Shown in pieces: positions 4,937-60,104 of a stretch of DNA of 64,000 bases; within the stretch, counting starts at the first letter, position 1; each line of letters opens with the position of its first letter. Below the pieces are notes generated by a model that was not told the origin of the DNA, searched no databases, and saw nothing but the letters and a program-made list of their open reading frames with translations. Origin of the DNA: Octopus vulgaris (Eukaryota); contig OX597820.1 of the NCBI GenBank assembly GCA_951406725.2, forward strand, positions 78,430,001 through 78,494,000, read 5' to 3'. The position numbers were made by a program, and so were the translations under genes.

Positions 4937-7129
4937 GCTGGCTCAACGTCTTATTTCATGACTATAATTTGGAAATGCAGTATGGCTTGGCTGCCTAACC
5001 GACATCGATATGAAATTAGCTAGTAATTTCTTATGTACTACAAATCAGCTTTACTCGATGAATCATACGATTTTCAAGTATTCAGTCAAACAACTGCGAG
5101 CGACCCACATCTCTGTTTTTCTCTGCCTGTCTCCACCTAGATGTGAAGCGTATTGCTTAACAAGGAGCATTCATCAGACCACTCGTGCCTCTTTAATTGG
5201 TGCACCACTACGATCGCTCTTCTAAATCTCCTTCACATACACCTAAATCTCTTAAAATTAGATGAATATACACGACTATGTATTTTTAATACAAAACATC
5301 CGTAAAAAGAATTCGGAGGTCATGTTCTGAATATCGAGCGAAGAACGTAGGTTCGAAACACAAAAGTACTTGTAATATACTGGGGTTGACTATATTGTTT
5401 GTGCTTTAGAATTCGATTCACCATGCCATGTCGGTAAAATGCTAATACTGAATGGCTTTCATGTTTTTGTCAGTACATTATTTTGGGTGAGTTAGAAATG
5501 AGAATTTGTGATGTTCACACATTTCCTAAGGGCAGCGATCTTTTACAGGAAATGAACTTGCAAGCCTACTTTATATATTGTCCCCTATCATATGAACTGA
5601 AATTGCTTTTTTCTCTTTCCAGAGTTAATAAAATAAGTAACAGATGAGTATTGAAGTCAACCTATGTATATAAACTCGATATGACGACTGGAGCCTATGA
5701 AAGCTATCAGTGAATGTTGTAAAAACACAAAGAAATATATATTGGTATTCTTCTTATATAACATGTGTACAGGAACGAGAACATGGTTATGTTTTATAGT
5801 AAAGTTATATTGATTACAAAATGATTCAATAATTGATAAAGAATAATACCTATTGATTTTCGATTGATTTCAAACAGTTTACATACATTAGTGTCTAAAG
5901 ATAAAAGATGTGAGGAAATTAAATGCTGTTTTTATATTTTGGTGCATGATAATCATCAATGATAATTTTTATTAAAACTGAATCGAATAAAGTGAAATGT
6001 TTATACAGATGTGTACACAATAATAAATGTTCATGTATGTACCTATGTAAAAGTAACATTTATGTTTCCCTATAAACCAATGTTTGTGATAGTTCTTTTT
6101 TCCGGTGTGCACGTATGTGTGTGATCTGATGTAGTGCATGAGAGAAAGAATGCTTGCTTAACTGGAATTTCAAAGCAAATAGACGCCATTGCTTTCTGTT
6201 ACATTGATTTAATTTTTGTATATTTAAAAGCTTTGCACCTACAATGTTTGTATTTACGTGTGTATGTGTGCGAATGTGTGTACTTAAGCGTATATGTAAA
6301 TATGATACAAAATACACAAGTATATATGTATGTATATATATATATATATATATTAATCTATATATATGTATATGTATGTATGTATGTATGCATGTATGTA
6401 TGTATGTATGTATGTACGTATGTATGTACGTACCTACATACATACATACAAACGTACGTACGTTCGTATGTATGTATTTATGTATGTATGTATGTATAGG
6501 AGTTTGAGTATGTATAAACGCATTTATTATGGATGTATGTATACGTGAATATATATGATAGAAATATATCATTCATACATGGGTGTGCTTGTGTGTAAAG
6601 ACACACGCCCACACATATATGCGAACATTTAAGTAATTTTGATATTTGTGCGCATTCATTATATATGTTGTTTGTACGCACGTGTATGCGCATGCCCTTG
6701 CGTAGAATGGAGGTTTGACTATAAATAAGTGTACGAGCGAATACATACATACCTACATACATTCGTACTTACATATATACATACATATATGAGTGTGTGT
6801 GTGTATATAAGTATATATATATATGCGCATGTACATACGTATGTATATATGTATGTATATATTTGTGTGGGTGGGGGTGCGTGTGTATGTTTTATTATGT
6901 TTAATGGCTGTCACTCTATTTCGAGTAATGCCGACGCTGATTGTTTCCTGAAATATGAGCAATACGGATGCGGTTCTTCCGCTCTGCAAGAAAATTATAC
7001 GCATATATAATAAATGGTGCAAAGATGGACGCCTCTTTAGTATATTTCATGATATTGCTTTGCCGAACCTTGATTTTAGAACCTTCTTTTAGAATTGCCT
7101 CCTAACGCCTATTCTTTTCCGCACACGTG

Positions 7130-46800: not shown

Positions 46801-48392
46801 CCTTTTACCTTTTACTAAACCAGAGGTGCCAAACATACGACCCCCTCTACTAAATTTCATATATAAAATTATTATAATTATTATCAAAATTTAAAATATT
46901 TAAAATATATTAATACTGATTCCGATTGGTTGAATTCGGGCATCTCAGGGAATCGTTTGCTTTTTCAGCCAGAGAAAAAGAAATTTACAAATCCATACAT
47001 GTATATGTATACTATTTCTCTTTCACTTTGTCTATAAACGTACAGCCAAGCGGAAGATTTTCCTCAAATGTGCGTATGTGCTCGTGGGAAAGGTTTCTAG
47101 TGACATAAACAAAATTCAAAGGTTTTGAAGTTAAAAGAGTGCAAGCTATCGACCAAGCCGTTTTAAGCATTCATTTGGAAAATGTCTATCCCCGCGTTTA
47201 CTTTAAAGATCTCTATTTAATAAGACTGCATATATTTTATGCGGACGAGTTTTTTCAAATATTTCTAAGCCCCGAATTTGCTAACAACTCTGTTGTTTAC
47301 TTTTCATAAAGTAGTTATTTCAACGTACATTAAAACAAGTTTATCAAAATAAGGAAGAATATTAGACGTCGGCAAAGATTGTGCGCAGAGACATTTGAGG
47401 AAAACCTGTATGTTGCCGCCACTTTTATCTATTTAGGTCTACATCATGAATGAGATTCATCTAGCTATCATTAGGCACTACGGCAACATAGAGTCTATTC
47501 TTTGAGAAACAGAAACGGAAACACTGACAAATATTTCATAAGAATAAATTATATGTGCATGTATATATGAATGAATTTTTCAAAATTTTTCCCAAAAATT
47601 TTTCAGAATTTTCCCAAAAAATTTTTGAAAGTATTCACTAAACGTTTTTGAAAATTTTCCTAAAAAATTTTACAAAATTTTTCCACAAAAATTTTTGAAA
47701 ATTTTTGAAAATTGTTCTCAAAACTTTTTCAAAATATTTCCCAAAACTTTTCATAACTTTTTGGGAAAAATTTCAAAAATTTTTAGGGTAAATTTTCAAA
47801 AATTTTTGGCAAAAATTTTCAAAAATTTCTGGGAAGATTTTCAAAAATTTTTAGGGAAAATTTTCTGTTTTTGGGGAAAATTTTCAAATATTTTTTTGAG
47901 AAATTTTCAAAACTTTTGGGGAAAATTTTCAAAAATTTTCAAAAATTTTTAGAGAAAATTTTCAAAATTTTTGAGGAGAATTCTCAAAAGTTTGAGGGGA
48001 AAGATTTCAAAAATTTTTTAGGAAAATTTTCAAAAATTTCTAGGAAGATTTTTATGGAAAATTTTCAAATATTACTGGGAAGATTTTTTAAAATTATTAA
48101 AGAAAGGTTTCAAGAATTTTTAGGGAAAATTTTCAAAAATTTTTGTCAGAAATTTTCAAAAATTTCTGTGAAGATTTTCAAAAATTTTTAGGGAAAATTT
48201 TCAAAAATTTTTGAGGAGAATTTTCAAAAATTTTGATGGAAAGTTTTCCGTGAAAATTTTCGAAAAATTTTTGGTGAAAAAAAATTTTTGGTGAAAATTT
48301 TCGAAAAATTTATTGGTAAAATTTTCGGTGAAAATTTTCGAAAAATTTTTGGGGAAATTTTCGGTGAAAATTTACGAAAAGATTTTGGGTAG

Positions 48393-48597
48393 CATATAAC
48401 GAATATGCTCCATATGCTGAAGTCTATAAACGTCGATATCGTCATAGTTGTTATGTGTAAAGGAGAATCTAGTGTCTCGTGGATGGTGAGGCATCTTAAC
48501 TGTAGTAGTAAACCAGAATTAACTCTATACACAGAAGGCATCAGCAGCAGCAACCTAAAAATCTATTTTTAGCCATAACATATATTTTAAGCTCGGG
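48393..48597 (-). pseudogene. CRESS-type Rep 5' cassette, copy A (long; ATG at 48494)
   Basis: Translates MPHHPRDTRFSFTHNNYDDIDVYRLQHMEHIRYM; ~100 bp of upstream sequence shared with the other copies. Confidence 0.6.
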
Positions 48598-48721
48598 TAA
48601 AATTTTCGAAACATTTTTGCTAAAAATATTCGGTGAAAATTTTCGAAAAATTTTTTGTTACAATTTTCGAAAAATTTTTATGGAAAATTTTCGAAACATT
48701 TTGGGTGAAAATTTTCGAAAT

Positions 48722-48926
48722 CCCATATAACGAATATGCTCCATATGCTGAAGTCTATAAACGTCGATATCGTCATAGTTATTAAGTGTAAAGCAGAATC
48801 TGGTGTATCGTGGATGGTGAGGCATCTTGAATGTGGTATTTATCCAGAATTCACACTATATATACACAGAAAGCAGCAGCAAACTAAGAATATATATTTA
48901 GCCATAACATGTATTTTTAGCTCGTG
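48722..48926 (-). pseudogene. CRESS-type Rep 5' cassette, copy B (long; ATG at 48825)
   Basis: Translates MPHHPRYTRFCFTLNNYDDIDVYRLQHMEHIRYMG; RCR motif I FTLNN. Confidence 0.7.
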
Positions 48927-49179
48927 GAAAATTTTCAAAAATTTTGGGGGAAACTTTTGGTGGAAAATTTTCGAAAAATTTTGAGTAATATTTTCGAAAA
49001 ATTTTGGGGGAAAATTTTAGAAAAATTTTTGGGGAAAATTTCTGAAAAATTTTTTTTGAAAATTGTCGGTGAAAATTTTCGAAAAATTTTTTGGTAAAAT
49101 TTCCGTCGTAAATTTTTGAAAAATGTTTGGGGAAAATTTTCGGTGAAAATTTTCGAAAAGTTTTTGGGGAAAATTTTCG

Positions 49180-50115
49180 GCACCTCTGGCTTCGTGATTT
49201 TCTGATTTTGGCACCGCCGGTTTTCCATACTTTGTGATTTGTCACCGCCGGTTTTCCATACTTTGTGATTTTGGCACCGCCGGCTTTCCATACTTTGTGG
49301 TTTTGGCACCGCCGGCTTTCCATACTTTGTGATTTCGAAAAAATTTTGGGTAAAATTTCCGGTATAAATTATCGAAAATTATTTGGGGTGGGGGTTTCGG
49401 TGAAAACCACAAAGTTATGGAAAGCCAGCGATACCAAAATCACAAAGTATGGAAAGCCGGCGGTGCCGAAAATTTTCCCCGATAATTTTTCGAAAATTTT
49501 TACCGAAAATTTTCAACAATAATTTTTCGAAAATTGACACCGGAAATTTTACAAAAAAATTTTCGACAATTTTTACCCTAAATTTTCAACAAATTTGATT
49601 TTGGCACCGCTGGCTTTCCATACTTTGTGATTTTGGCACCGCCGGCTTTCCATACTTTGTGATTTTGGCATCGCCGGCATTCCATACTTTGTGATTTTGG
49701 CACCGCCGTCTTTCCATACTTTGTGATTTCGAAATATATTTGGGTAAAATTTGCTGTATAAATTTTCGAAAAATTTTTGGGGAGAATTTTCGGTGAAAAC
49801 TTTCGAAAAATTTTTGAGGAATATTTTCGAAAAAATTTTGGGGAAAATTTTCGAAAAATTTTTGGGGAAAATTTCCATACTTTCGGCACCGCCGGCTTTC
49901 CATTTTGACACCGCTGGCTTTCCATACTTTTGAGGAATATTTTCGAAAAAATTTTGGGGAAAATTTTCGAAAAATTTTTGTTTAAAATTTCCATACTTTC
50001 GGCACCGCCGGCTTTCCATTTTGACACCGCTGGCTTTCCATACTTTGTGATTTTGGCACCGCTGGCTCTCCATACTTTGTGATTTTGGCACCGCCGGCTT
50101 TCCATACTCTGTGAT
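49180..50115 (+). repeat. 32-bp repeat TTTTGGCACCGCCGGCTTTCCATACTTTGTGA in tandem clusters (also at 51017-51170)
   Basis: Clusters at ~49205-49335, ~49600-49730, ~49875-49930, ~49990-50115; two inverted copies at ~49403-49470. Confidence 0.92.
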
Positions 50116-50205
50116 TTCCAAACATATTTGGGTACAATTTTCGGTATAAATTTTCGAAAAATTTTTGGGGAGAATTTTCGGTGAAAATTTTCGAAAAATT
50201 TTTGC

Positions 50206-50355
50206 GTTAAGTGTAAAGCAGAATCTGGTGTATCGTGGATGGTAAGGCATCTTGACTGTAGTAGTGAACCAGAATTCACTCTATGTATACACAGAAAGCA
50301 CCAACAGCCACCAAAAAACCTATTTTTTTCTATGACATCTATTTTTAGCTCGGGG
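50206..50355 (-). pseudogene. CRESS-type Rep 5' cassette, copy C (short; ATG at 50250)
   Basis: MPYHPRYTRFCFTLN, then runs into the A/T array. Confidence 0.6.
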
Positions 50356-50565
50356 AAAACTTTCAAAAAATTTTTGGGGAAAATTTTGGTGGAAAATTTT
50401 CGAAAAATTTTTGAGGTATATTTTCCAAAAAATTTTGGGGAAAATTTTCGAAAAATCTTTGTTGAAAATTTTCGGTAAAAATTTTCGAAAAATTTTTTGG
50501 TAAAATTTCCGGTGTCAATTTTAGAAAAATTTTTGTTGAAAATTTTCGGTAACAATTTTCGAAAA

Positions 50566-50777
50566 CCCATATAACGAATATGCTCCATATGCTGAAGTCT
50601 ATAAACGTCGATATCGTCATAGTTGTTAAGTGTAAAGCAGAATCTGGTGTATCGTGGATGGTGAGGCATCTTGAATGTAGTATTTATCCAGAATTGACAC
50701 TATATATACACAGAAAGCAGCAGCAGCAGCAACCTAAAATTGTATTTTTAGCCATAACATCTACTTTTAGCTCGGGG
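50566..50777 (-). pseudogene. CRESS-type Rep 5' cassette, copy D (long; ATG at 50669)
   Basis: MPHHPRYTRFCFTLNNYDDIDVYRLQHMEHIRYMGF (start of listed ORF 49578..50669). Confidence 0.7.
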
Positions 50778-51260
50778 AAAATTTTCAAAAATTTTGGGGG
50801 AAAATTTTCCAAAACTTTTTGAGTAATATTTTCGAAAAGTTTTGGGGGAAAATTTTCGAAAAATTTTTGGGTAAAATTTTGAAAATTTTTTTTGAAAATT
50901 TTCGGTGAAAATTTTTCGATAAATTTTTTGGTCAAATTTCCGTCATAAATTTTTGAAAACTTTTTGGGGAAAATTTTCGGTGAAAATTTTCGAAAAGTTT
51001 TTGGGGAAAATTTTCCGCACCTCTGGCTTTGTGATTTTGTGATTTTGTCACCGCCGGTTTTCCATACTTTGTGATTTGTCACCGCCGGCTTTCCATACTT
51101 TGTGATTTTGGCACCGCCGGCTTTCCATACTTTGTGGTTTTGGCACCGCCGGCTTTCCATACTTTGTGATTTCGAAAAATTTTTGGGTAAAATTTTCGGT
51201 ATAAATTATCGAAAAATTTTTGGGGAGAATTTTCGGTGAAAATTTTCGAAAAATTTTAGG

Positions 51261-51410
51261 GTTAACTGTAAAGCAAAATCTGGTGTATCGTGGATGGTGC
51301 GGCATCTTGACTGTAGTAAAAAACCAGAATTCACTCTATATATACACAGAAAGCACCAGTAGCGACCAAAAAACCTATATTTAGCTATGACATCTATTTT
51401 TAGCTCAGGG
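51261..51410 (-). pseudogene. CRESS-type Rep 5' cassette, copy E (short; ATG at 51305)
   Basis: MPHHPRYTRFCFTVN, then array sequence. Confidence 0.6.
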
Positions 51411-51534
51411 AAAATTTTAGAAAAATTTTTGGGGAAAATTGTCGGGAAAATTTTCGAAAACCTTTTGGGTAAAATTTTCCGGGAAAATTTTCGAAAAATT
51501 TTTGGGGAAAATTTTCAGTTAAAATTTCCGAAAA

Positions 51535-51743
51535 CCCATGGAGTGAATATGCTCCATATGCTGAAGTCTATAAACGTCGATATCGTCACAGTTGTTAAGT
51601 GTAAAGCAGATTCTAGTGTATCGTGGATGGTGAGGCATCTTGACTGTGGTATTAAACCAGAACTCACTCTATATATAAACAGAAAGCTCCAGCATCCACC
51701 AAAAAATCTATTTTTAGCCATAACATCTATTTTTAGCTCGGGG
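51535..51743 (-). pseudogene. CRESS-type Rep 5' cassette, copy F (long; ATG at 51638)
   Basis: MPHHPRYTRICFTLNNCDDIDVYRLQHMEHIHSMG. Confidence 0.65.
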
Positions 51744-51946
51744 AAAATTTTCAAAAATTTTTGGGGAAAATTTTGGTGGAAAATTTTCGAAAAATTTTTG
51801 AGTAATATTTTCGAAAAGTTTTGGGGGAAAATTTTCGGCTTTCCATACTTTGTGATTTCGAAAAATTTTTGGGTAAAATTTTCGGTATAAATTATCGAAA
51901 AATTTTTGGGGAGAATTTTCGGTGAAAATTTTTGAAAAATTTTTGG

Positions 51947-52068
51947 GTTAACTGTAAAGCAAAATCTGGTGTATCGTGGATGGTGAGGCATCTTGACTGT
52001 AGTAAAAAACCAGAATTCACTCTATATATACACAGAAAGCACCAGTAGCGACCAAAAAACCTATATTT
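51947..52068 (-). pseudogene. CRESS-type Rep 5' cassette, copy G (short; ATG at 51991)
   Basis: MPHHPRYTRFCFTVN; nearly identical to copy E, with the upstream part truncated. Confidence 0.6.
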
Positions 52069-53279
52069 TCAAAAATTTTTAGGCAAAATTTTCAAATATT
52101 TTTGAGGAGAATTTCCAAAAACTTTTGGGGAAAATTTTCAAAACTCTTTGGGAAAAATTTTCAAAAATTTCTAAAATTTTTAGCGAAAGTTTTCAAAAAT
52201 TTGAGGAGAATTTCAAAAAAATTTTTGGGGCAAATTTTCAAAAATTTTGGGAAAAATTTTCAAAACTTTTTGGGAAAAATTTTCAAAAATTTCTGGGTAG
52301 ATTTTCAAAAATTTTTAGGGAAAATTTTCAAAAATTTTTGAGGAGAATTTTTTAAAATTTTGGTGGAAAATTTTCAAAAATTTATGTGGAAAACTTTCAA
52401 CTCTTTTTGGGAAAAATTATCAAAAATTTCTGGGAAGATTTTCAAAAATTTTTAGGAAAGTTTTCGAAAATTTTTAGGGAAAATTATCAAAAATTTTCAA
52501 AAATTTCTGGGAAGGTTTTCAAAAATTTTTAGGGAAAATTTCCAAAACTTTTTGGGAAAAGTTTTCCAAAATTTATAGGAAGATTTTCAAAAATTTTTAG
52601 GGAAAATTTTCAAATATTTCTGGGAAGATTTTCAAAAACTTTTAAGGAAAGGTTTCAAAAATTTTTAGGGAAAATCTTCAACAATTTTTGGAAAAAATTT
52701 TCAAAAATTTTTGGGAAGATTTTCAAAAATTTTTAGGGAAAATTTTCAAATATTTTTGAAGAGAATTTCCAAAAATTTTTGGGAAAAATTTTCAAAAATT
52801 TCTGGGAAGATTTTCAAAAAGCCTTTCTGTCTCCACTATATCACCCCCTCTGTCGCACAATCCTACTGTCTCACACTACTACCCTCTAATCTACAACACA
52901 ACCAACTGACATCTAATTTGCATACCGAAGTGTATTATGCTGTGCACATATCATCAAAGGGAAGTTTTGCTGATAATGCTGAGGGAGAACCATTTTATCG
53001 CCGGTATTGGCCCCCTTCATTAATAACCAATGGTATAAAATATACGTAGATAAATATAAATACATGCATATATAATTGGTTTCCTGCTCAATTTTCATCA
53101 AACAGATTCCCCAACACAATATTTGTGAACCCTAGACTGTAGTTGAAGACACTTTAGCAAGTGTCTTCAACTATCTTATAAGGTATTATTGTAGCTCGAG
53201 GTTAATTTGCAGTAAAACGGTTATGTGAGGCAAACGTCTCTATCACAGTACAATGCCTGTAATGATAGCATTAAATCAT

Positions 53280-53930
53280 TTTCTCTACTATAGACACCAA
53301 AGCCTGATAGTGCCAGTCTATTACATCGATCCCAGTGTTCGACTGGCACTTATTTTATCGATCCCGAAAGAACGAAAGGCAAATCTGATATCGGCAGGAT
53401 TTGAACTCAAAGTGTACAGAAAATGACGTTGAGCATTTTATCCGGCGTGCTAACGATTTGGCCAGCTCACCGCCTTATAACATTCAAAGAACCCTTTCGA
53501 CTAAAGGCATAAAGCCTGAAATGTGGGGCGATGGGGCTATTCTATTAGATCGGCCCCAATATGTAACTGATACCTAATTTATCGACCCCCAATTTATCGA
53601 AAGGAAAAGTCGACCTTGGTTGAATTTGAACTCAGAACGTAGCGACGGGCGAAATACTGCTAAGCATTTGGTCCAACGTCCTAACGATTCTGCCAGCTCA
53701 CCACCATTCAAATAGTCTTTTTTACTCTAGACACAAGGCCCGAAATTTTGGGGGAGGGGGCCAGTCGATTAGATCGAAACCAGTACGCAACTGGTACTTA
53801 ATTTATGGACCCCGAAAGGATGAAAGATAAAGTCGACCTCGGCTGAATTTGAACTCAGAACGTAAAGACAGACAAAATATGCTAAGCATTTCGTCCAGCG
53901 TGCTAACGATTCTGCCAGCTCGCTACCTTT
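53280..53930 (-). mobile_element. Three tandem SINE family B copies
   Basis: Three successive ~200-bp units ending GCTAACGATT..GCCAGCTC.C..CC on the plus strand (near 53475, 53705, 53928), each with ATCGA.CCCGAAAG...TTTGAACTCA. Confidence 0.85.
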
Positions 53931-54777: not shown

Positions 54778-55541
54778 CATTGAATATTATGGGTTCAAAA
54801 AAAGTTTTTTACATAATTGTCACATTGAATATTATGAATTCAAAAATGTTTTTTTATACATAATTGTCACATTACATGTATAAATATAGTATAAAAAAGT
54901 TCAATAGTGTGATGAGAATATTTGGAAAAATTGGCAGAAAAGAATAAAACAAATATATTATTGGAAATTTGGTTGCGTTAATTATTGGTTGTCGCAAATT
55001 GTCACATTACATGTATATATATACAGTCTTTGGTAGAAATGACATGTTAAAGACATAAGGAAGTGTAATAGTTTGGTGAGAAAGCTTGTAATATTGACAG
55101 AGAAAATTAAAATGGATATTTTAGACATCTCAGAATATTTTGAATCGAAGGCGAGAATTTGTTTTTTACTGACCTGTTTGTTTTAGCAGAAAAGTTGAAT
55201 TGAGAGAAAAAAAGATATGTACCCAATTTGGTTTATACTTCCCCTTCAAGCATCAGTGACTTTGGGGTTATTGGGAGGTGAGTATGCGGGTGTGAATAGA
55301 TGTGTCCGTGTGCCTGCTGGTCAGACAGCGTCTGTTTGTCACACACATATATACACACACACACACAACAACAATACACACACACACATAGTATACACAC
55401 ACACACCACATACACACAACACACACACACACAGAACACACACACACACAACGCACCCACATATATAATATATACACACAGCACACAAATATAACATGTA
55501 TTTATATATAATATACACACATATATAAAACATACACACAC

Positions 55542-55576
<35 letters not shown>

Positions 55577-56824
55577 CACACGCACACATATATACATAAT
55601 ATAAATATCACACAAATACACCTAGCATATATATACACATACAATACACATACACAGCATGTATATAATACACATACACAATATATGCATGCAATATACA
55701 TACGCAATACATACATATAATATATATATATATAGACAATGCATATACATATATACATATATACATATAAATAGTGTTTACATACACATACATAGATATA
55801 CCACATATACACACAATATACATACATACAATGCATACACATACACGTACGCATACATATAAAATATATAGACACACACACACATAACATACATACACAA
55901 TGCATACATATATATACACGCAACGTATATACATGTATTCATGTATATATAACACACTTACAATATACATATATACAATGCACACATACACACATATATA
56001 CACTTAATTGTACACATACATATACAATACACATACATACAATATACATATACACAATGCGCATGCAAATAATGCACATGTTTATACACCCATATACATG
56101 AAAATATATATACACACACACACATACACACACACATATATATATATACACATATATATATATATATACACATATACATACATACATACATGCACATACA
56201 TATATTTTTTCACACACATACACACACATATATATATAAAATTCACACACACACCCACACACACAAAATACAAACCTATAGTGTACACACTCAAATATAT
56301 CTCTACATACCGCACACACACACAAACAATGTACTCACATATACACACATACCATGCATATACACACACAGCACACGCACATATATATATATATATATAT
56401 ATATAAACAAATACACATGTAAATACATACACTCGTACACAATGCTCACACACACACACATACACACACACACGCACACAGTGCACACACACACACATAT
56501 ATACACACGTGCACACACACACACAACGCGCGCACACACACACACATACACACCCGCACACAGTGCACACACACACACACACATAAACACACGCGCACAC
56601 ACACACACACAACGTGCACACTCACACACACACACACAACACTCACACACATACATAACCTACATATATATAATGCATGCGTGTACGTGCCACGTATGTG
56701 TGCGGTCAATGCCCGCTAGTGTGTCCTATGCGTGCCGATGCGCGCATGTGCCCACCCGCACGATATGCTGTGAGTGTGCGCGTGTCCCTGTGTGCCTGCT
56801 CTGGATGTGTGCCCAGGGGGTATG

Positions 56825-57425
56825 TTAGAGTATGTTTAGTTGTGGTCTGTATTTTTGAATAAGATTACTTTCCTTATTTATTCGTGTTTGGTCTGTGGTG
56901 TTGTCCGAGCATTGGTATAGTGGGAAGACTAAGAATTTGGGGGACTTATTGTGTGCACAAAGGTCTAAGTGTCCACTTAGTGGTATCTGTCTTGTGGAGG
57001 GGTCCCTCAGTTGTTGTCGGTGAACTGTCATTCTTTCTCTGAGGGTAAGGCTCGTTTGCCCTATGTAGTCTTCGTGGCATCCTTCACACCTTATGACGTA
57101 GAGTAAATTTTTTGATGCGCACGTGAAATTATTTTTTATGATGAATGTGTGTCCCGAGTGGAACTTGTACGACGATCCCTCAATGAGGTGGATGCAGGTC
57201 TTGCAATTGGGGCGACCACATTTTTTGATGGTGGGCGGTGGGTTTGTGTTGTGTAATTTTGCGTTGGTGAGGAGGTTTTTTAGGGATTTAGGTTGTCTCT
57301 TACTTTTTATTATTTTATGAGCTGCCAGTATTTTTTTCAGGCGTGGGTCTTGATTTAGTTGTGGAATGTTGTTGTATATAATAGTGTAAGCTTCTGCATT
57401 CCTTGGGTTGTGTGTTGAGAGATAG
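56825..57425 (-). CDS. Penelope-like GIY-YIG endonuclease with Cys-rich linker (frameshifted continuation of the RT ORF)
   Basis: Alternative frame reads YLSTHNP...KKCGRPNCKTC...FTCASKNLLYVIRCEGCHEDYIGQTSLTLRERMTVHRQQL...KESNLIQKYRPQLNIL*. Confidence 0.9.
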
Positions 57426-59100
57426 GGAGGCTATTTACTGAACTGTGGATGTGTTTGGGTTTTCGTAGGTCTTGAATGTTGATTGATTTGGCCCGTTCTA
57501 TTCCGTTGTCTACTAGTGATGCCGGGTAATGTCTTTCGAGAAGAATTGCCCTTAGTTCCCGGAGTCTTCTATTTCGTGTTGTGTCATTTGAGACAATAGT
57601 GCAGATTCTTCTCGCTAGGTTGAAGGGGATATTTGTCTTTGTGTGTTTTGGGTGATTGGAGGTGAATAGAAGGTATTGTTTAGAGTCAGTGGGTTTGTAA
57701 TGGATGTCAGTTTCAATGTTGACGCCTTTTTTAATGATTAGGATGTCAAGAAAAGGGAGTTGGTCCTGACTATATTCCATTGTGAATTGAATGTTGTTAT
57801 TAACACTGTTGATAAGGTTTTTGAAGTCTTTAAGTTGGTCGAGTGTGTGGGACCATAGGATGAGGCAATCATCTAAGTAGCGTTTCCAGTTCTCCAACAG
57901 GTATTTGTGGAAAGACTGGCCGTACTTATATTTGGATTTTTCATAGATATGTGATTCCAGGTAGGCCATCACCAGGTTTGCATAGGTAGGTGCAACTTTC
58001 GTACCCATTGCAGTTCCTGAGACCTGTCTGTAAGTGTTGTTGTGGAAATACATGAAGTTGTTTTGCAGAATAAATTTGAGGCCCTCAATTATGAATTCTT
58101 TTTTAATTCTTTCCGGGATCTCATTGGGATATTTATCCAGCCAGAATTTAATGGCTTCCAGTCCATATTCATGTGGGATTGTGGTGTAAAGATTAATAAC
58201 ATCAAAAGAAACGATTAAGGTGTCTTTATCGGCATGTTTGGGGAGATGATTTAATAGGTCCAGGTCATCTCTTACAATACTTGGAATGTGTTTCAGTATT
58301 GGCTTTAAGATGATATCTATAAAGTTGCTAAGTCTGTGTGTTTCACAACTTGGGCCTGCCACTATTGGTCTCAGTTTGAGATCAGTGGGATGTGGTATAG
58401 TGATGCAGGTTGAAGTGGACTTTTTGCAAGCTTCTGTGATAATTTGACTCTTGTGTATTTTTGGAAGCCCATAGAGTGTGCTGGTTTTGCAATTAAATTT
58501 AGTAATGTAGTCGCATTCCTTTGCTGTCAAGTCATTCCGGTGTTGGTAAATGAGTGCCTTCAGTTTGGTCATTGTTTTGGATTGCTGGTAGTCGACTACT
58601 CTCTCATAGTATGTGGTATCCTCTAAAAGGAGAGATACAGAGTTTTTATATTGCTCAGTATTCATAACAACGACCGTACTACCCTTATCAGCTTCCTTTA
58701 TTGTGACGTTATGATTGTCTCGTAGCGTATGTATGATTTCCCATTCTCTTTTACTGGTGTTGGGTTTGAGTTTAGGTTGTGGGAGTTCACCATAAGGGAA
58801 GTTTGAGATGTAATCGCAAAATTTGTCTAAGGTTTTGTTTTTGCCTTTTATGGGATTATAGTTGCTTTTGTTACGGACCATTGATTCGTCGTTATTATTA
58901 GTTTTCCTGTCAAAGAATTCCTCTGTGAGGCGTAATTTTCTGCAAAAGTGTGAGATGTCATCCTGTATTTCCCTCAGGTTAGGGTATTGCGGAGTTGGGG
59001 TGAATTTTAGTCCTCTTGAAAGGATTTTTATTTGTGGTGTCGACAGGTTTAGGTTAGAGAGATTCACTATTTTTGGTTTTTCGGGGTTGGTATCTACCAT
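57355..59100 (-). CDS. Penelope-like reverse transcriptase (Neptune-like), probably 5'-truncated, single frameshift near 57424
   Basis: 581-aa ORF with LSRGLKFTPTP, IKEADKGSTVV, LYGLPKIHK, RPIVA, SFDVINLYTTIP, GTAMGTKVAPTYANL, RYLDD, LPFLDI, HYKPTD and SNHPKHTKTNIPF. Confidence 0.96.
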   Translation of the reverse strand: MVDTNPEKPKIVNLSNLNLSTPQIKILSRGLKFTPTPQYPNLREIQDDISHFCRKLRLTEEFFDRKTNNNDESMVRNKSNYNPIKGKNKTLDKFCDYISNFPYGELPQPKLKPNTSKREWEIIHTLRDNHNVTIKEADKGSTVVVMNTEQYKNSVSLLLEDTTYYERVVDYQQSKTMTKLKALIYQHRNDLTAKECDYITKFNCKTSTLYGLPKIHKSQIITEACKKSTSTCITIPHPTDLKLRPIVAGPSCETHRLSNFIDIILKPILKHIPSIVRDDLDLLNHLPKHADKDTLIVSFDVINLYTTIPHEYGLEAIKFWLDKYPNEIPERIKKEFIIEGLKFILQNNFMYFHNNTYRQVSGTAMGTKVAPTYANLVMAYLESHIYEKSKYKYGQSFHKYLLENWKRYLDDCLILWSHTLDQLKDFKNLINSVNNNIQFTMEYSQDQLPFLDILIIKKGVNIETDIHYKPTDSKQYLLFTSNHPKHTKTNIPFNLARRICTIVSNDTTRNRRLRELRAILLERHYPASLVDNGIERAKSINIQDLRKPKHIHSSVNSLPISQHTTQGMQKLTLLYTTTFHN

Positions 59101-59213
59101 CTGTATATTGCATGCATATATTGTGTATGTGTATTATATACATGCTGTGTATGTGTATTGTATGTGTATATATATGCTAGGTGTATTTGTGTGATATTTA
59201 TATTATGTATATA

Positions 59214-59259
<46 letters not shown>

Positions 59260-60104
59260 GTGTGTGTATGTTTTATATATGTGTGTATATTATATATAAA
59301 TACATGTTATATTTGTGTGCTGTGTGTATATATTATATATGTGGGTGCGTTGTGTGTGTGTGTGTTCTGTGTGTGTGTGTGTTGTGTGTATGTGGTGTGT
59401 GTGTGTATACTATGTGTGTGTGTGTATTGTTGTTGTGTGTGTGTGTGTATATATGTGTGTGACAAACAGACGCTGTCTGACCAGCAGGCACACGGACACA
59501 TCTATTCACACCCGCATACTCACCTCCCAATAACCCCAAAGTCACTGATGCTTGAAGGGGAAGTATAAACCAAATTGGGTACATATCTTTTTTTCTCTCA
59601 ATTCAACTTTTCTGCTAAAACAAACAGGTCAGTAAAAAACAAATTCTCGCCTTCGATTCAAAATATTCTGAGATGTCTAAAATATCCATTTTAATTTTCT
59701 CTGTCAATATTACAAGCTTTCTCACCAAACTATTACACTTCCTTATGTCTTTAACATGTCATTTCTACCAAAGACTGTATATATATACATGTAATGTGAC
59801 AATTTGCGACAACCAATAATTAACGCAACCAAATTTCCAATAATATATTTGTTTTATTCTTTTCTGCCAATTTTTCCAAATATTCTCATCACACTATTGA
59901 ACTTTTTTATACTATATTTATACATGTAATGTGACAATTATGTATAAAAAAACATTTTTGAATTCATAATATTCAATGTGACAATTATGTAAAAAACTTT
60001 TTTTGAACCCATAATATTCAATGTTACTTTTGACAATCTTTTTAACAAAAGAGTGAAACCGGTTAAGTAAATAAACATCGTTTAAATTGCATTTTCAAAC
60101 CTTT

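Follow-up and report, generated by a model that had tools for sequence, protein, structure and literature searches.

The window, a 64-kb stretch of octopus DNA, contains a 5.2-kb array with a GC content of 30% made of an A/T-palindrome satellite. The palindrome GAAAATTTTC occurs 49 times inside the array and 0 times elsewhere in the window. As originally predicted, seven co-oriented cassettes, each opening with AAG-ATG on the minus strand, are embedded in this satellite (Table 1), and the ATG-to-ATG spacing is irregular (331-1425 nt). The prediction was right that four cassettes are long and three short (through codons 34 and 15, respectively), but the stop codons that it placed at their ends do not exist, and the frame runs on into the satellite. 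The conserved upstream DNA of about 100 bp holds in general, but the copy starting at 51991 shares only about 75 bases of it, and the exact peptide quoted is read in just two of the seven copies. The main layout stands as described, but three features had been overlooked: a third module, a GC-richer 32-bp unit present in 18 copies; an inner block in the opposite orientation; and the inversion of the left end. The two termini of the array are imperfect inverted repeats of each other (74-82%), which follows from the palindromic nature of the repeat units.

Table 1. Features of the array (positions are those of the window)
Feature	Positions	Strand	Remarks
Whole mosaic satellite array	47575..52820	.	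one of many dispersed arrays of the family
Left terminal A/T-palindrome tract, period ~23 bp	47575..48390	.	47575-47750 inverted relative to remainder
Cassette 7, long, ATG 48494	48393..48594	-	damaged motif I
Cassette 6, long, ATG 48825	48724..48923	-	within 801-nt block, 90% identity to cassette 4 block
32-bp unit x4	49205..49334	-
Inverted inner block: satellite + 32-bp unit x2	49400..49595	+	opposite orientation
32-bp unit x4	49598..49728	-
32-bp unit x3	50018..50116	-	further single copy 49902-49934
Cassette 5, short, ATG 50250	50206..50351	-
Cassette 4, long, ATG 50669	50568..50773	-	GCT tract, TATA-like box 50708, Rep codons 1-34 including motif I
32-bp unit x4	51042..51171	-
Cassette 3, short, ATG 51305	51261..51406	-	98.7% identity over 233 nt with cassette 1 block
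Cassette 2, long, ATG 51638	51537..51739	-
Cassette 1, short, ATG 51991	51947..52066	-	through codon 15; upstream part shortened
Right terminal A/T-palindrome tract, period ~23 bp	52065..52820	.

The cassette had been read as a CRESS-virus Rep gene cut short after its 5' end. By itself the peptide gave a weak profile match (Pfam E 0.11) and zero matches in the PDB, but a relative in the same genome, the Rep domain at locus C14, matches the Viral_Rep profile with an E value of 5e-23 and solved Rep structures with 2e-14. The cassette aligns with this intact HUH Rep over 72/102 nt and 23/34 amino acids (E 4e-13), and the mismatches fall at codon positions 1/2/3 in the ratio 11/3/16, a pattern of purifying selection. 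The genome also contains an origin-to-origin CRESS provirus and further CRESS fragments. Given this identity, the purifying pattern and the CRESS sequences in the genome, the stub is viral: at the level of sequence, codons 1-34 of the cassette are demonstrably derived from a viral Rep, in support of the original reading. Thus, the cassette shows the N-terminal HUH Rep homology with motif I of an endogenous CRESS-DNA virus element, established through C14, and it is integrated in host DNA, with host repeats at its flanks and the left junction recovered in 3 of 4 runs. Beyond motif I, motifs II and III are absent, and the arrays lack the Rep catalytic motifs. A copy continuing into motif II, which had been envisaged, was found neither among the copies at 30 loci read nor among 126 protein matches in the genome, the longer of which continue into satellite. 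No direct parent virus copy was found, the nearest being 71% identical in nucleotides; a degenerate-pattern search of metagenome contigs for a free parent gave 0 matches, and the best matches of the C14 Rep among viral contigs are 33-50% identical.

Across the genome, one Viral_Rep match lay above the cut-off. The C14 Rep frame (104 aa, helicase-less) is a single insert inside a Merlin-like transposase, where it terminates at the insert boundary and substitutes for 39 nt of the transposase without duplication. We rejected Rep as a standard component of the Merlin family, since it is absent from other Merlin copies. A second locus, C15, combines a hairpin bearing TAGTATTAC (z -4.0) and a duplicated intergenic region with a 354-aa frame that has 99 homologs, of which 83 carry Viral_Rep and one bears the name SF3 helicase. 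A Pfam search of the 354-aa frame itself gave no helicase match; it includes what we take to be Walker motifs. A convergent frame (Atlas 0.90, a lead) suggests a capsid-like gene. The combination of a Rep with a helicase half, a capsid and a nonamer hairpin, as in the presumed parent group, is found in the relatives only; no relatives of the C15 frame were found among viral contigs. The CRESS record of the octopus germline comprises several lineages, a provirus and additional origins.

The cassette, a stub of 200 bases, is highly repeated. At least 140 copies lie on 13 contigs, and a search of the genome with the 23-nt start motif gave 140 matches, compared with 1 for the motif reversed, so the repetition is not due to chance. 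The copies have a common 3' junction directly past codon 34, which indicates that the Rep 5' end was likely captured a single time. Among 95 collinear copies, mismatches at the three codon positions number 209/182/190 (pN/pS 0.98) and stops occur in 22; indels or truncations affect 26/121 copies. As judged from these substitutions, the cassette has demonstrably evolved neutrally since capture, although a DNA- or RNA-level role may be compatible with neutral evolution of the protein. The host could retain the arrays because they yield antiviral small RNAs or act as regulatory repeats with a promoter, a reading that would fit the TATA-like box kept upstream of the ATG and the siRNAs that PMC5014472 describes from amplified yam geminiviral repeats. 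We consider it very unlikely: decay is equal at all codon positions with no sign of constraint, the cassette is frequently cut or inverted and missing from most arrays, and the archived virus amounts to merely ~100-165 nt.

Copies within arrays are closer to each other (distance 0.088) than copies on different contigs (0.113). The closest relative lies in the same array for 49/95 copies (5.1 after shuffling), and the closest out-of-array relative lies on the same contig for 20 (7.0 when shuffled; 10/2000 shuffles). The satellite itself is more widespread: a 47-mer of it has 310 genome matches and a 32-mer of the 32-bp unit 111, with 0 for controls, and the cassette is absent from 21/27 sampled loci carrying an exact 47-nt satellite match. 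The family thus has the tandem short units, many unlinked loci and within-array homogenisation of a dispersed complex satellite. Another array carries an unrelated 277-nt insert, duplicated there. When compared with 80 viral contigs and with the unit at C15, neither the 32-bp unit nor the satellite gave a match. Consequently, the claim that the whole array derives from a Rep replicon is not supported, since its two other modules match no viral sequence compared and are mostly cassette-free. An origin of the satellite from Rep codons past 34 was rejected, the similarity not exceeding that of shuffles (276/1000 and 580/1000). The satellite might, however, have arisen where the Rep fragment was captured, most loci then losing the cassette.

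We then considered whether the arrays could be transposons of a non-autonomous kind, resembling Replitrons, Helitrons or foldback elements and served by an enzyme from another locus. Arrays on many contigs, the inverted ends of the window array and the helicase-less frame at C14 would all suit such elements. The ends, however, differ at nearly all of 79 array junctions: no terminus is shared (the commonest 8-mer, seen 3x, is a MITE junction), and no target-site duplication pattern appears. Thus, within the approximate boundaries set by BLAST, neither the conserved TIRs and TSD of cut-and-paste or foldback elements nor, with no common ends, the conserved 5' and 3' termini and subterminal hairpin of Helitrons/Helentrons were found. 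Palindromic units suffice for inverted ends, and the C14 frame is a lone insert cut at its boundary, a protein 79% identical to it being longer. Replitrons, according to PMC10288648, are multicopy eukaryotic elements with a CRESS-related Y1 HUH Rep, reported from plants, algae and protists; they have no helicase, their own conserved region of 230 aa and short direct terminal repeats. The octopus arrays fit none of these: we found no helicase-less Rep transposase with a second domain and, at the 79 junctions, no short direct terminal repeats or common termini. The suggestion of a Replitron-like element likewise fails on the relatives, in which the C-terminal half is of helicase type and a capsid-like gene lies in convergent orientation. 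Altogether, we regard a transposon as highly improbable.

The upstream part of the cassette is similar to the DNA on the Rep side of the endogenous origin C12 (p<=0.05 in 49/120 copies, an equally high score in 9/6698 control windows), in a comparison that followed two negative ones, similarity to upstream DNA of C14 or C15 not being significant, and that used non-independent copies. A GCT tract lies 49-70 nt upstream of the ATG in 83/120 copies; such a tract adjoins the endogenous origins C12 and C31, and is near 0/65 hairpin origins of viral contigs. The TATA-like box, 37-39 nt upstream, is retained among copies. The assignment of this part to the viral promoter side is therefore probably right, and the cassette appears to begin at one arm of a viral origin stem. 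Such a start might hint that the first step depended on Rep.

On these grounds, a defective virus-host hybrid might have formed at the viral origin, with Rep on the retained GCT repeats aiding amplification and reinsertion. Plant minicircles of BCTIV offer a parallel, a viral intergenic piece fused to A/T-rich host DNA, but, as described in PMC6293997, they are episomal, about half genome length and always keep the stem-loop origin. In the octopus the loop and second arm are absent and the region is unfolded (z 0.06-1.4, against -4.0 and -5.4 in real origins). The nonamer-like AAATATTAC between A/T arms, 162-172 nt upstream of 3 window cassettes, forms a hairpin in just 1/14 arrays, and the motif is present at cassette-free loci too. 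A nonamer at -16 (TAATATTAC in 9/121 copies, TAGTATTAC in 1/121) was rejected: these copies belong mostly to one C14 sub-group and form no hairpin, and the commonest letters among the 121 copies differ from both. No GC-stem origin was found across 14 arrays (47,693 bases). The proposed rolling-circle concatemer was thus not borne out; no intact stem-loop with nonamer was found, one arm at most being retained, and, instead of head-to-tail units of equal length, the arrays are irregular mosaics with both orientations at several loci. Nor is the stub a concatemer confined to one locus, given its many copies on 13 contigs, their common 3' junction and their neutral decay. Given also the wider spread of cassette-free arrays, the hybrid seems unlikely, and it is equally doubtful that an octopus CRESS Rep would have driven genome-wide amplification of a host satellite via GCT repeats, as a virus-powered germline satellite.

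Long low-complexity arrays are prone to mis-assembly, and the support for the junctions comes from contigs rather than long reads and covers the left side alone. There, the linkage of array and flank is upheld: contigs from three of four public runs (X2, X3 and X14, with three organism labels, one possibly the assembly's own sample) span the left junction, and the fourth, X5, has no flank coverage. Copies sit among host SINEs on 13 contigs, and a block of MITE-like element plus cassette is found on three contigs with unrelated flanks. An assembly artefact or contamination is extremely improbable.

We therefore favour, as the probable explanation, that a dispersed, pre-existing A/T-palindrome satellite captured the Rep 5' end a single time and that this end subsequently spread as a non-functional passenger; the original prediction as a whole is partly supported. 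Germline infection would have left many fragments of the CRESS group, probably patching DNA breaks. One of these, carrying the origin-side GCT tract, TATA box and Rep start, would have joined the satellite, and blocks of satellite and passenger may then have been copied to new sites by template switching or circular intermediates, with host recombination and repair as the likely spreading force. Growth of the arrays in place would have involved duplications (330-1840 bp) as well as deletions and inversions. Microhomology at junctions averaged 2.9 against 2.3 in simulated joins (1021/5000) and, under another rule, 2.45 against 1.17 (130/5000); a first control (0/2000) was discarded because BLAST extension had biased it.

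Several known systems share parts of this picture. The GRD of Nicotiana, as described in PMC5014472, are direct repeats of a truncated, degenerate rep 5' part with an intergenic fragment and, like the cassettes, are multicopy and evolve neutrally; they carry origin-like sequence and occupy one or two chromosomes, whereas the octopus copies, in an animal host, have no intact origin and are interleaved with satellite on 13 contigs. Drosophila Rsp-like/1.688 and Tribolium Cast form short arrays that spread in bursts, insert into other repeats and enlarge by unequal exchange. For such dispersed euchromatic satellites, the routes put forward are microhomology repair and circular DNA (PMC7403614, PMC11610590). 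Unlike the octopus arrays, they are not described with a viral passenger; for the octopus, too, the spreading route is only proposed. Endogenous animal Rep-like sequences are truncated fragments, some within transposons or genes, usually with fewer than 10 copies, at most ~60 (two arthropods), and with mostly unrelated flanks, according to PMC3198968; the octopus has at least 140 copies from what is likely a single capture. We found no literature on a satellite-borne stub or on the octopus CRESS group in a search covering the main texts of mostly open-access papers.

These results indicate that a one-off viral scrap can exceed a hundred copies without a transposase or selection; the copy number of an endogenous viral element therefore does not necessarily imply that infection was repeated or that the element has a function. 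The cassette can serve as a dated tag for tracking satellite movement between chromosomes, and the octopus emerges as a host for a CRESS clade otherwise met in this analysis only as contigs.

The window array mixes three modules: A/T-palindrome tracts (periods ~23, ~24 and ~37), a 32-bp unit and the ~200-bp cassette. A recount confirmed seven co-oriented minus-strand cassettes. Four extend to codon 34 and three to codon 15 (motif I), much as originally predicted, but the proposed stop codons are not there and the frame continues into satellite. Truncation at codon 15 was unique to this array among 121 copies compared. The array has been enlarged by local duplication: an 801-nt block recurs at 90% identity (offset 1842) and a shorter one of 233 nt at 98.7% (offset 686), further blocks are also duplicated, and one inner block is inverted. 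The original prediction had called for reads linking the array to its flanks; contigs of sequencing runs X2, X3 and X14 reach across the left junction and 31-36 letters into the array, those of run X5 not covering the flank. The array, with its Rep-derived cassettes, is real.

Features in the window and in excerpted loci (L) of octopus contigs (C)
Feature	Position	Strand	Remarks
Satellite array	window 47575-52820		
AAATATTAC between A/T arms	window 48985-48993, 50823-50831, 51802-51810	minus	162-172 nt upstream of three cassettes
SINE-like host repeat, 224 bp	window 53300-53930		three tandem copies, directly right of array
Penelope-like retroelement	window 55233-59568	minus	592-aa reverse transcriptase and GIY-YIG frames, Pfam above cut-off; flanked by CA-rich repeated ends
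Rep HUH-domain fragment	L031:1383-1794 (C14, 64.34 Mb)		inserted in Merlin-like (IS1595-type) transposase; single locus
Origin-to-origin CRESS provirus	L168:4805-7124 (C15, 38.11 Mb)		intergenic region at both ends, broken Rep, capsid-like frame
Defective viral copy	L231:3900-4831 (C12, 6.09 Mb)		origin hairpin, capsid part; nearly all Rep deleted
Helicase-half and capsid fragment	L180:4225-5700 (C11, 25.61 Mb)		long open frame
Capsid-like frame, origin-like region	L230, L232 (C31, 6.46 and 3.48 Mb)		segmental duplication
277-nt non-viral insert	L211:5548-5824, 6422-6699		two copies (99%) within cassette-free satellite array
MITE-like element, about 400 bp	L069, L070, L073		inverted ends roughly 110 bp; upstream of cassette

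The 34-aa cassette peptide alone reached Pfam Viral_Rep at E 0.11 in two of three copies tested and matched nothing in the PDB; its predicted identity as a CRESS Rep start was established through another locus. A genome-wide Viral_Rep family search gave a single match above the cut-off, a 104-aa frame on C14 with all three motifs, I to III (Viral_Rep E 5e-23; solved Rep structures E 2e-14; 8588 relatives). Window cassette 50669 shares 72 of 102 nt and 23 of 34 aa with it, and the mismatches by codon position (11/3/16) indicate past selection on a protein. Logan contigs from other samples encode close relatives of both (proteins P0003/P0157 and P0001), 61-64% to the cassette peptide and 79% to C14 Rep residues 51-102. 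The C14 piece is a 412-nt insert replacing 39 nt of the transposase, and is absent from nine other retrieved transposase copies.

The C15 provirus has a hairpin, TAGTATTAC (folding z -4.0), and a Rep start, AAG-ATG, 64% like the cassette; its broken Rep lacks the motif II stretch. Its other frames are one of 354 aa and a convergent one that is capsid-like. The provirus as a whole resembles a fragment of a rolling-circle multimer. Viral_Rep occurs in 83/99 homologs of the 354-aa frame; the nearest named ones bear the species labels Octopus vulgaris and Octopus bimaculoides, and one of these is annotated as an SF3 helicase domain protein. A Pfam search of the frame itself gave no helicase match. 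Nine further helicase-part and five further capsid-part matches lie elsewhere in the genome. Since related elements have helicase-type homologs and a capsid-like frame, sequence comparison assigns the cassette's parent to a Rep-helicase and capsid CRESS virus. The Replitron-like transposon originally entertained is rejected, the features given in the available text on Replitrons (PMC10288648) being absent here. Among virus-derived loci compared, only C14 matched the cassette at the DNA level; no direct parent copy was found among the genome's virus-derived loci, and the satellite was absent from all 12 helicase-part or capsid-part loci examined. The C11 frame is 88% identical over 258 aa to Octopus bimaculoides protein P0257, and may be an old shared insertion or domesticated. 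The C31 duplication is about 96% over 4 kb.

The cassette's own upstream 100 nt gave no fold and no match to C14 or C15 upstream DNA. The C12 origin hairpin folds at z -5.4; its nonamer lies on the capsid strand, whereas C15 has it on the other one. The Rep side of the C12 hairpin shows the same succession as the cassette: first the stem arm, then the GCT tract, the TATA box, ACTACTAC and finally the ATG. Similarity of the C12 flank to the upstream part of the cassette is moderate: the best copies stand at 1-2 of 500 shuffles, p<=0.05 holds for 49/120 copies, two of three window copies tested are not significant, and 9/6698 control windows score as high. The GCT tract occurs in 83/120 cassettes and adjoins a second origin-like site on C31 (weak fold, z -1.4); it was beside none of 65 viral-contig origins. 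From this shared order and tract, a viral source is probable for about 65 nt upstream of the ATG. The 5' break is likely to lie at the origin stem, the loop and the other arm having been lost. Such a break would allow a Rep-linked first step, though no usable origin remains. Plant virus-host minicircles all retain their origin, according to the available text of PMC6293997. The AAATATTAC hairpin, present in one of 14 arrays (the window's), is likely a satellite variant.

The satellite also exists without the cassette. Genome searches gave 310 matches for its 47-nt pattern and 111 for the 32-bp unit, with none for the controls. The 39 exact 47-mer matches form 27 loci, six already known to contain cassettes; none was found in the other 21 (10 kb examined each; one array exceeded both ends), nor in 14 loci chosen by the 32-bp unit among those not known to hold any, one overlapping the 21. 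The cassette is probably a passenger of the satellite, not its driver, and the predicted descent of the array as a whole from a Rep replicon is not supported. Array ends occur at any position in any module; 79 junctions yielded no shared terminus, and no target-site duplication pattern was seen at array junctions. The MITE-like element meets the cassette at the identical base on three contigs, while the outer flanks are unrelated, terminating in simple repeats or other satellites, which indicates block copying. Two other repeats, a distinct satellite of 22 bp and one of 9 bp, are interspersed with the cassette satellite (L070:5850 onward, L073:5157-5300).

The cassette start had 140 matches genome-wide (control 1), with copies on 13 contigs; retrieved DNA held 121 in 27 arrays. 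The junction after codon 34 is common to them, which argues for a single capture. In the 95 copies that are collinear, mismatches by codon position were 209/182/190 and pN/pS was 0.98; stop codons occur in 22, and the ATG is missing from 11. Indels or truncations affect 26/121 copies. Distances rise from 0.088 within arrays to 0.102 on the same contig and 0.113 between contigs, an order supported by nearest-neighbour tests.

In the part of the literature that was searched, we found neither octopus CRESS elements nor the present satellite described. Rep-like elements in animals usually number under 10 copies, in the available part of PMC3198968. The closest system is Nicotiana GRD, likewise a truncated rep with an intergenic fragment, in direct repeats and neutral; GRD differs in retaining origin-like sequence and being clustered (PMC5014472, available text). 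Microhomology at the array junctions did not separate clearly from that of simulated joins (mean 2.9 against 2.3, 1021 of 5000; 2.45 against 1.17, 130 of 5000, under a second rule). Spread may have occurred by template switching or through circular intermediates, the routes put forward for satellites of flies and beetles (PMC7403614, PMC11610590). The best explanation, and in our judgement a fairly probable one, is that a dispersed satellite captured a Rep 5' end once and then spread it as a passenger.
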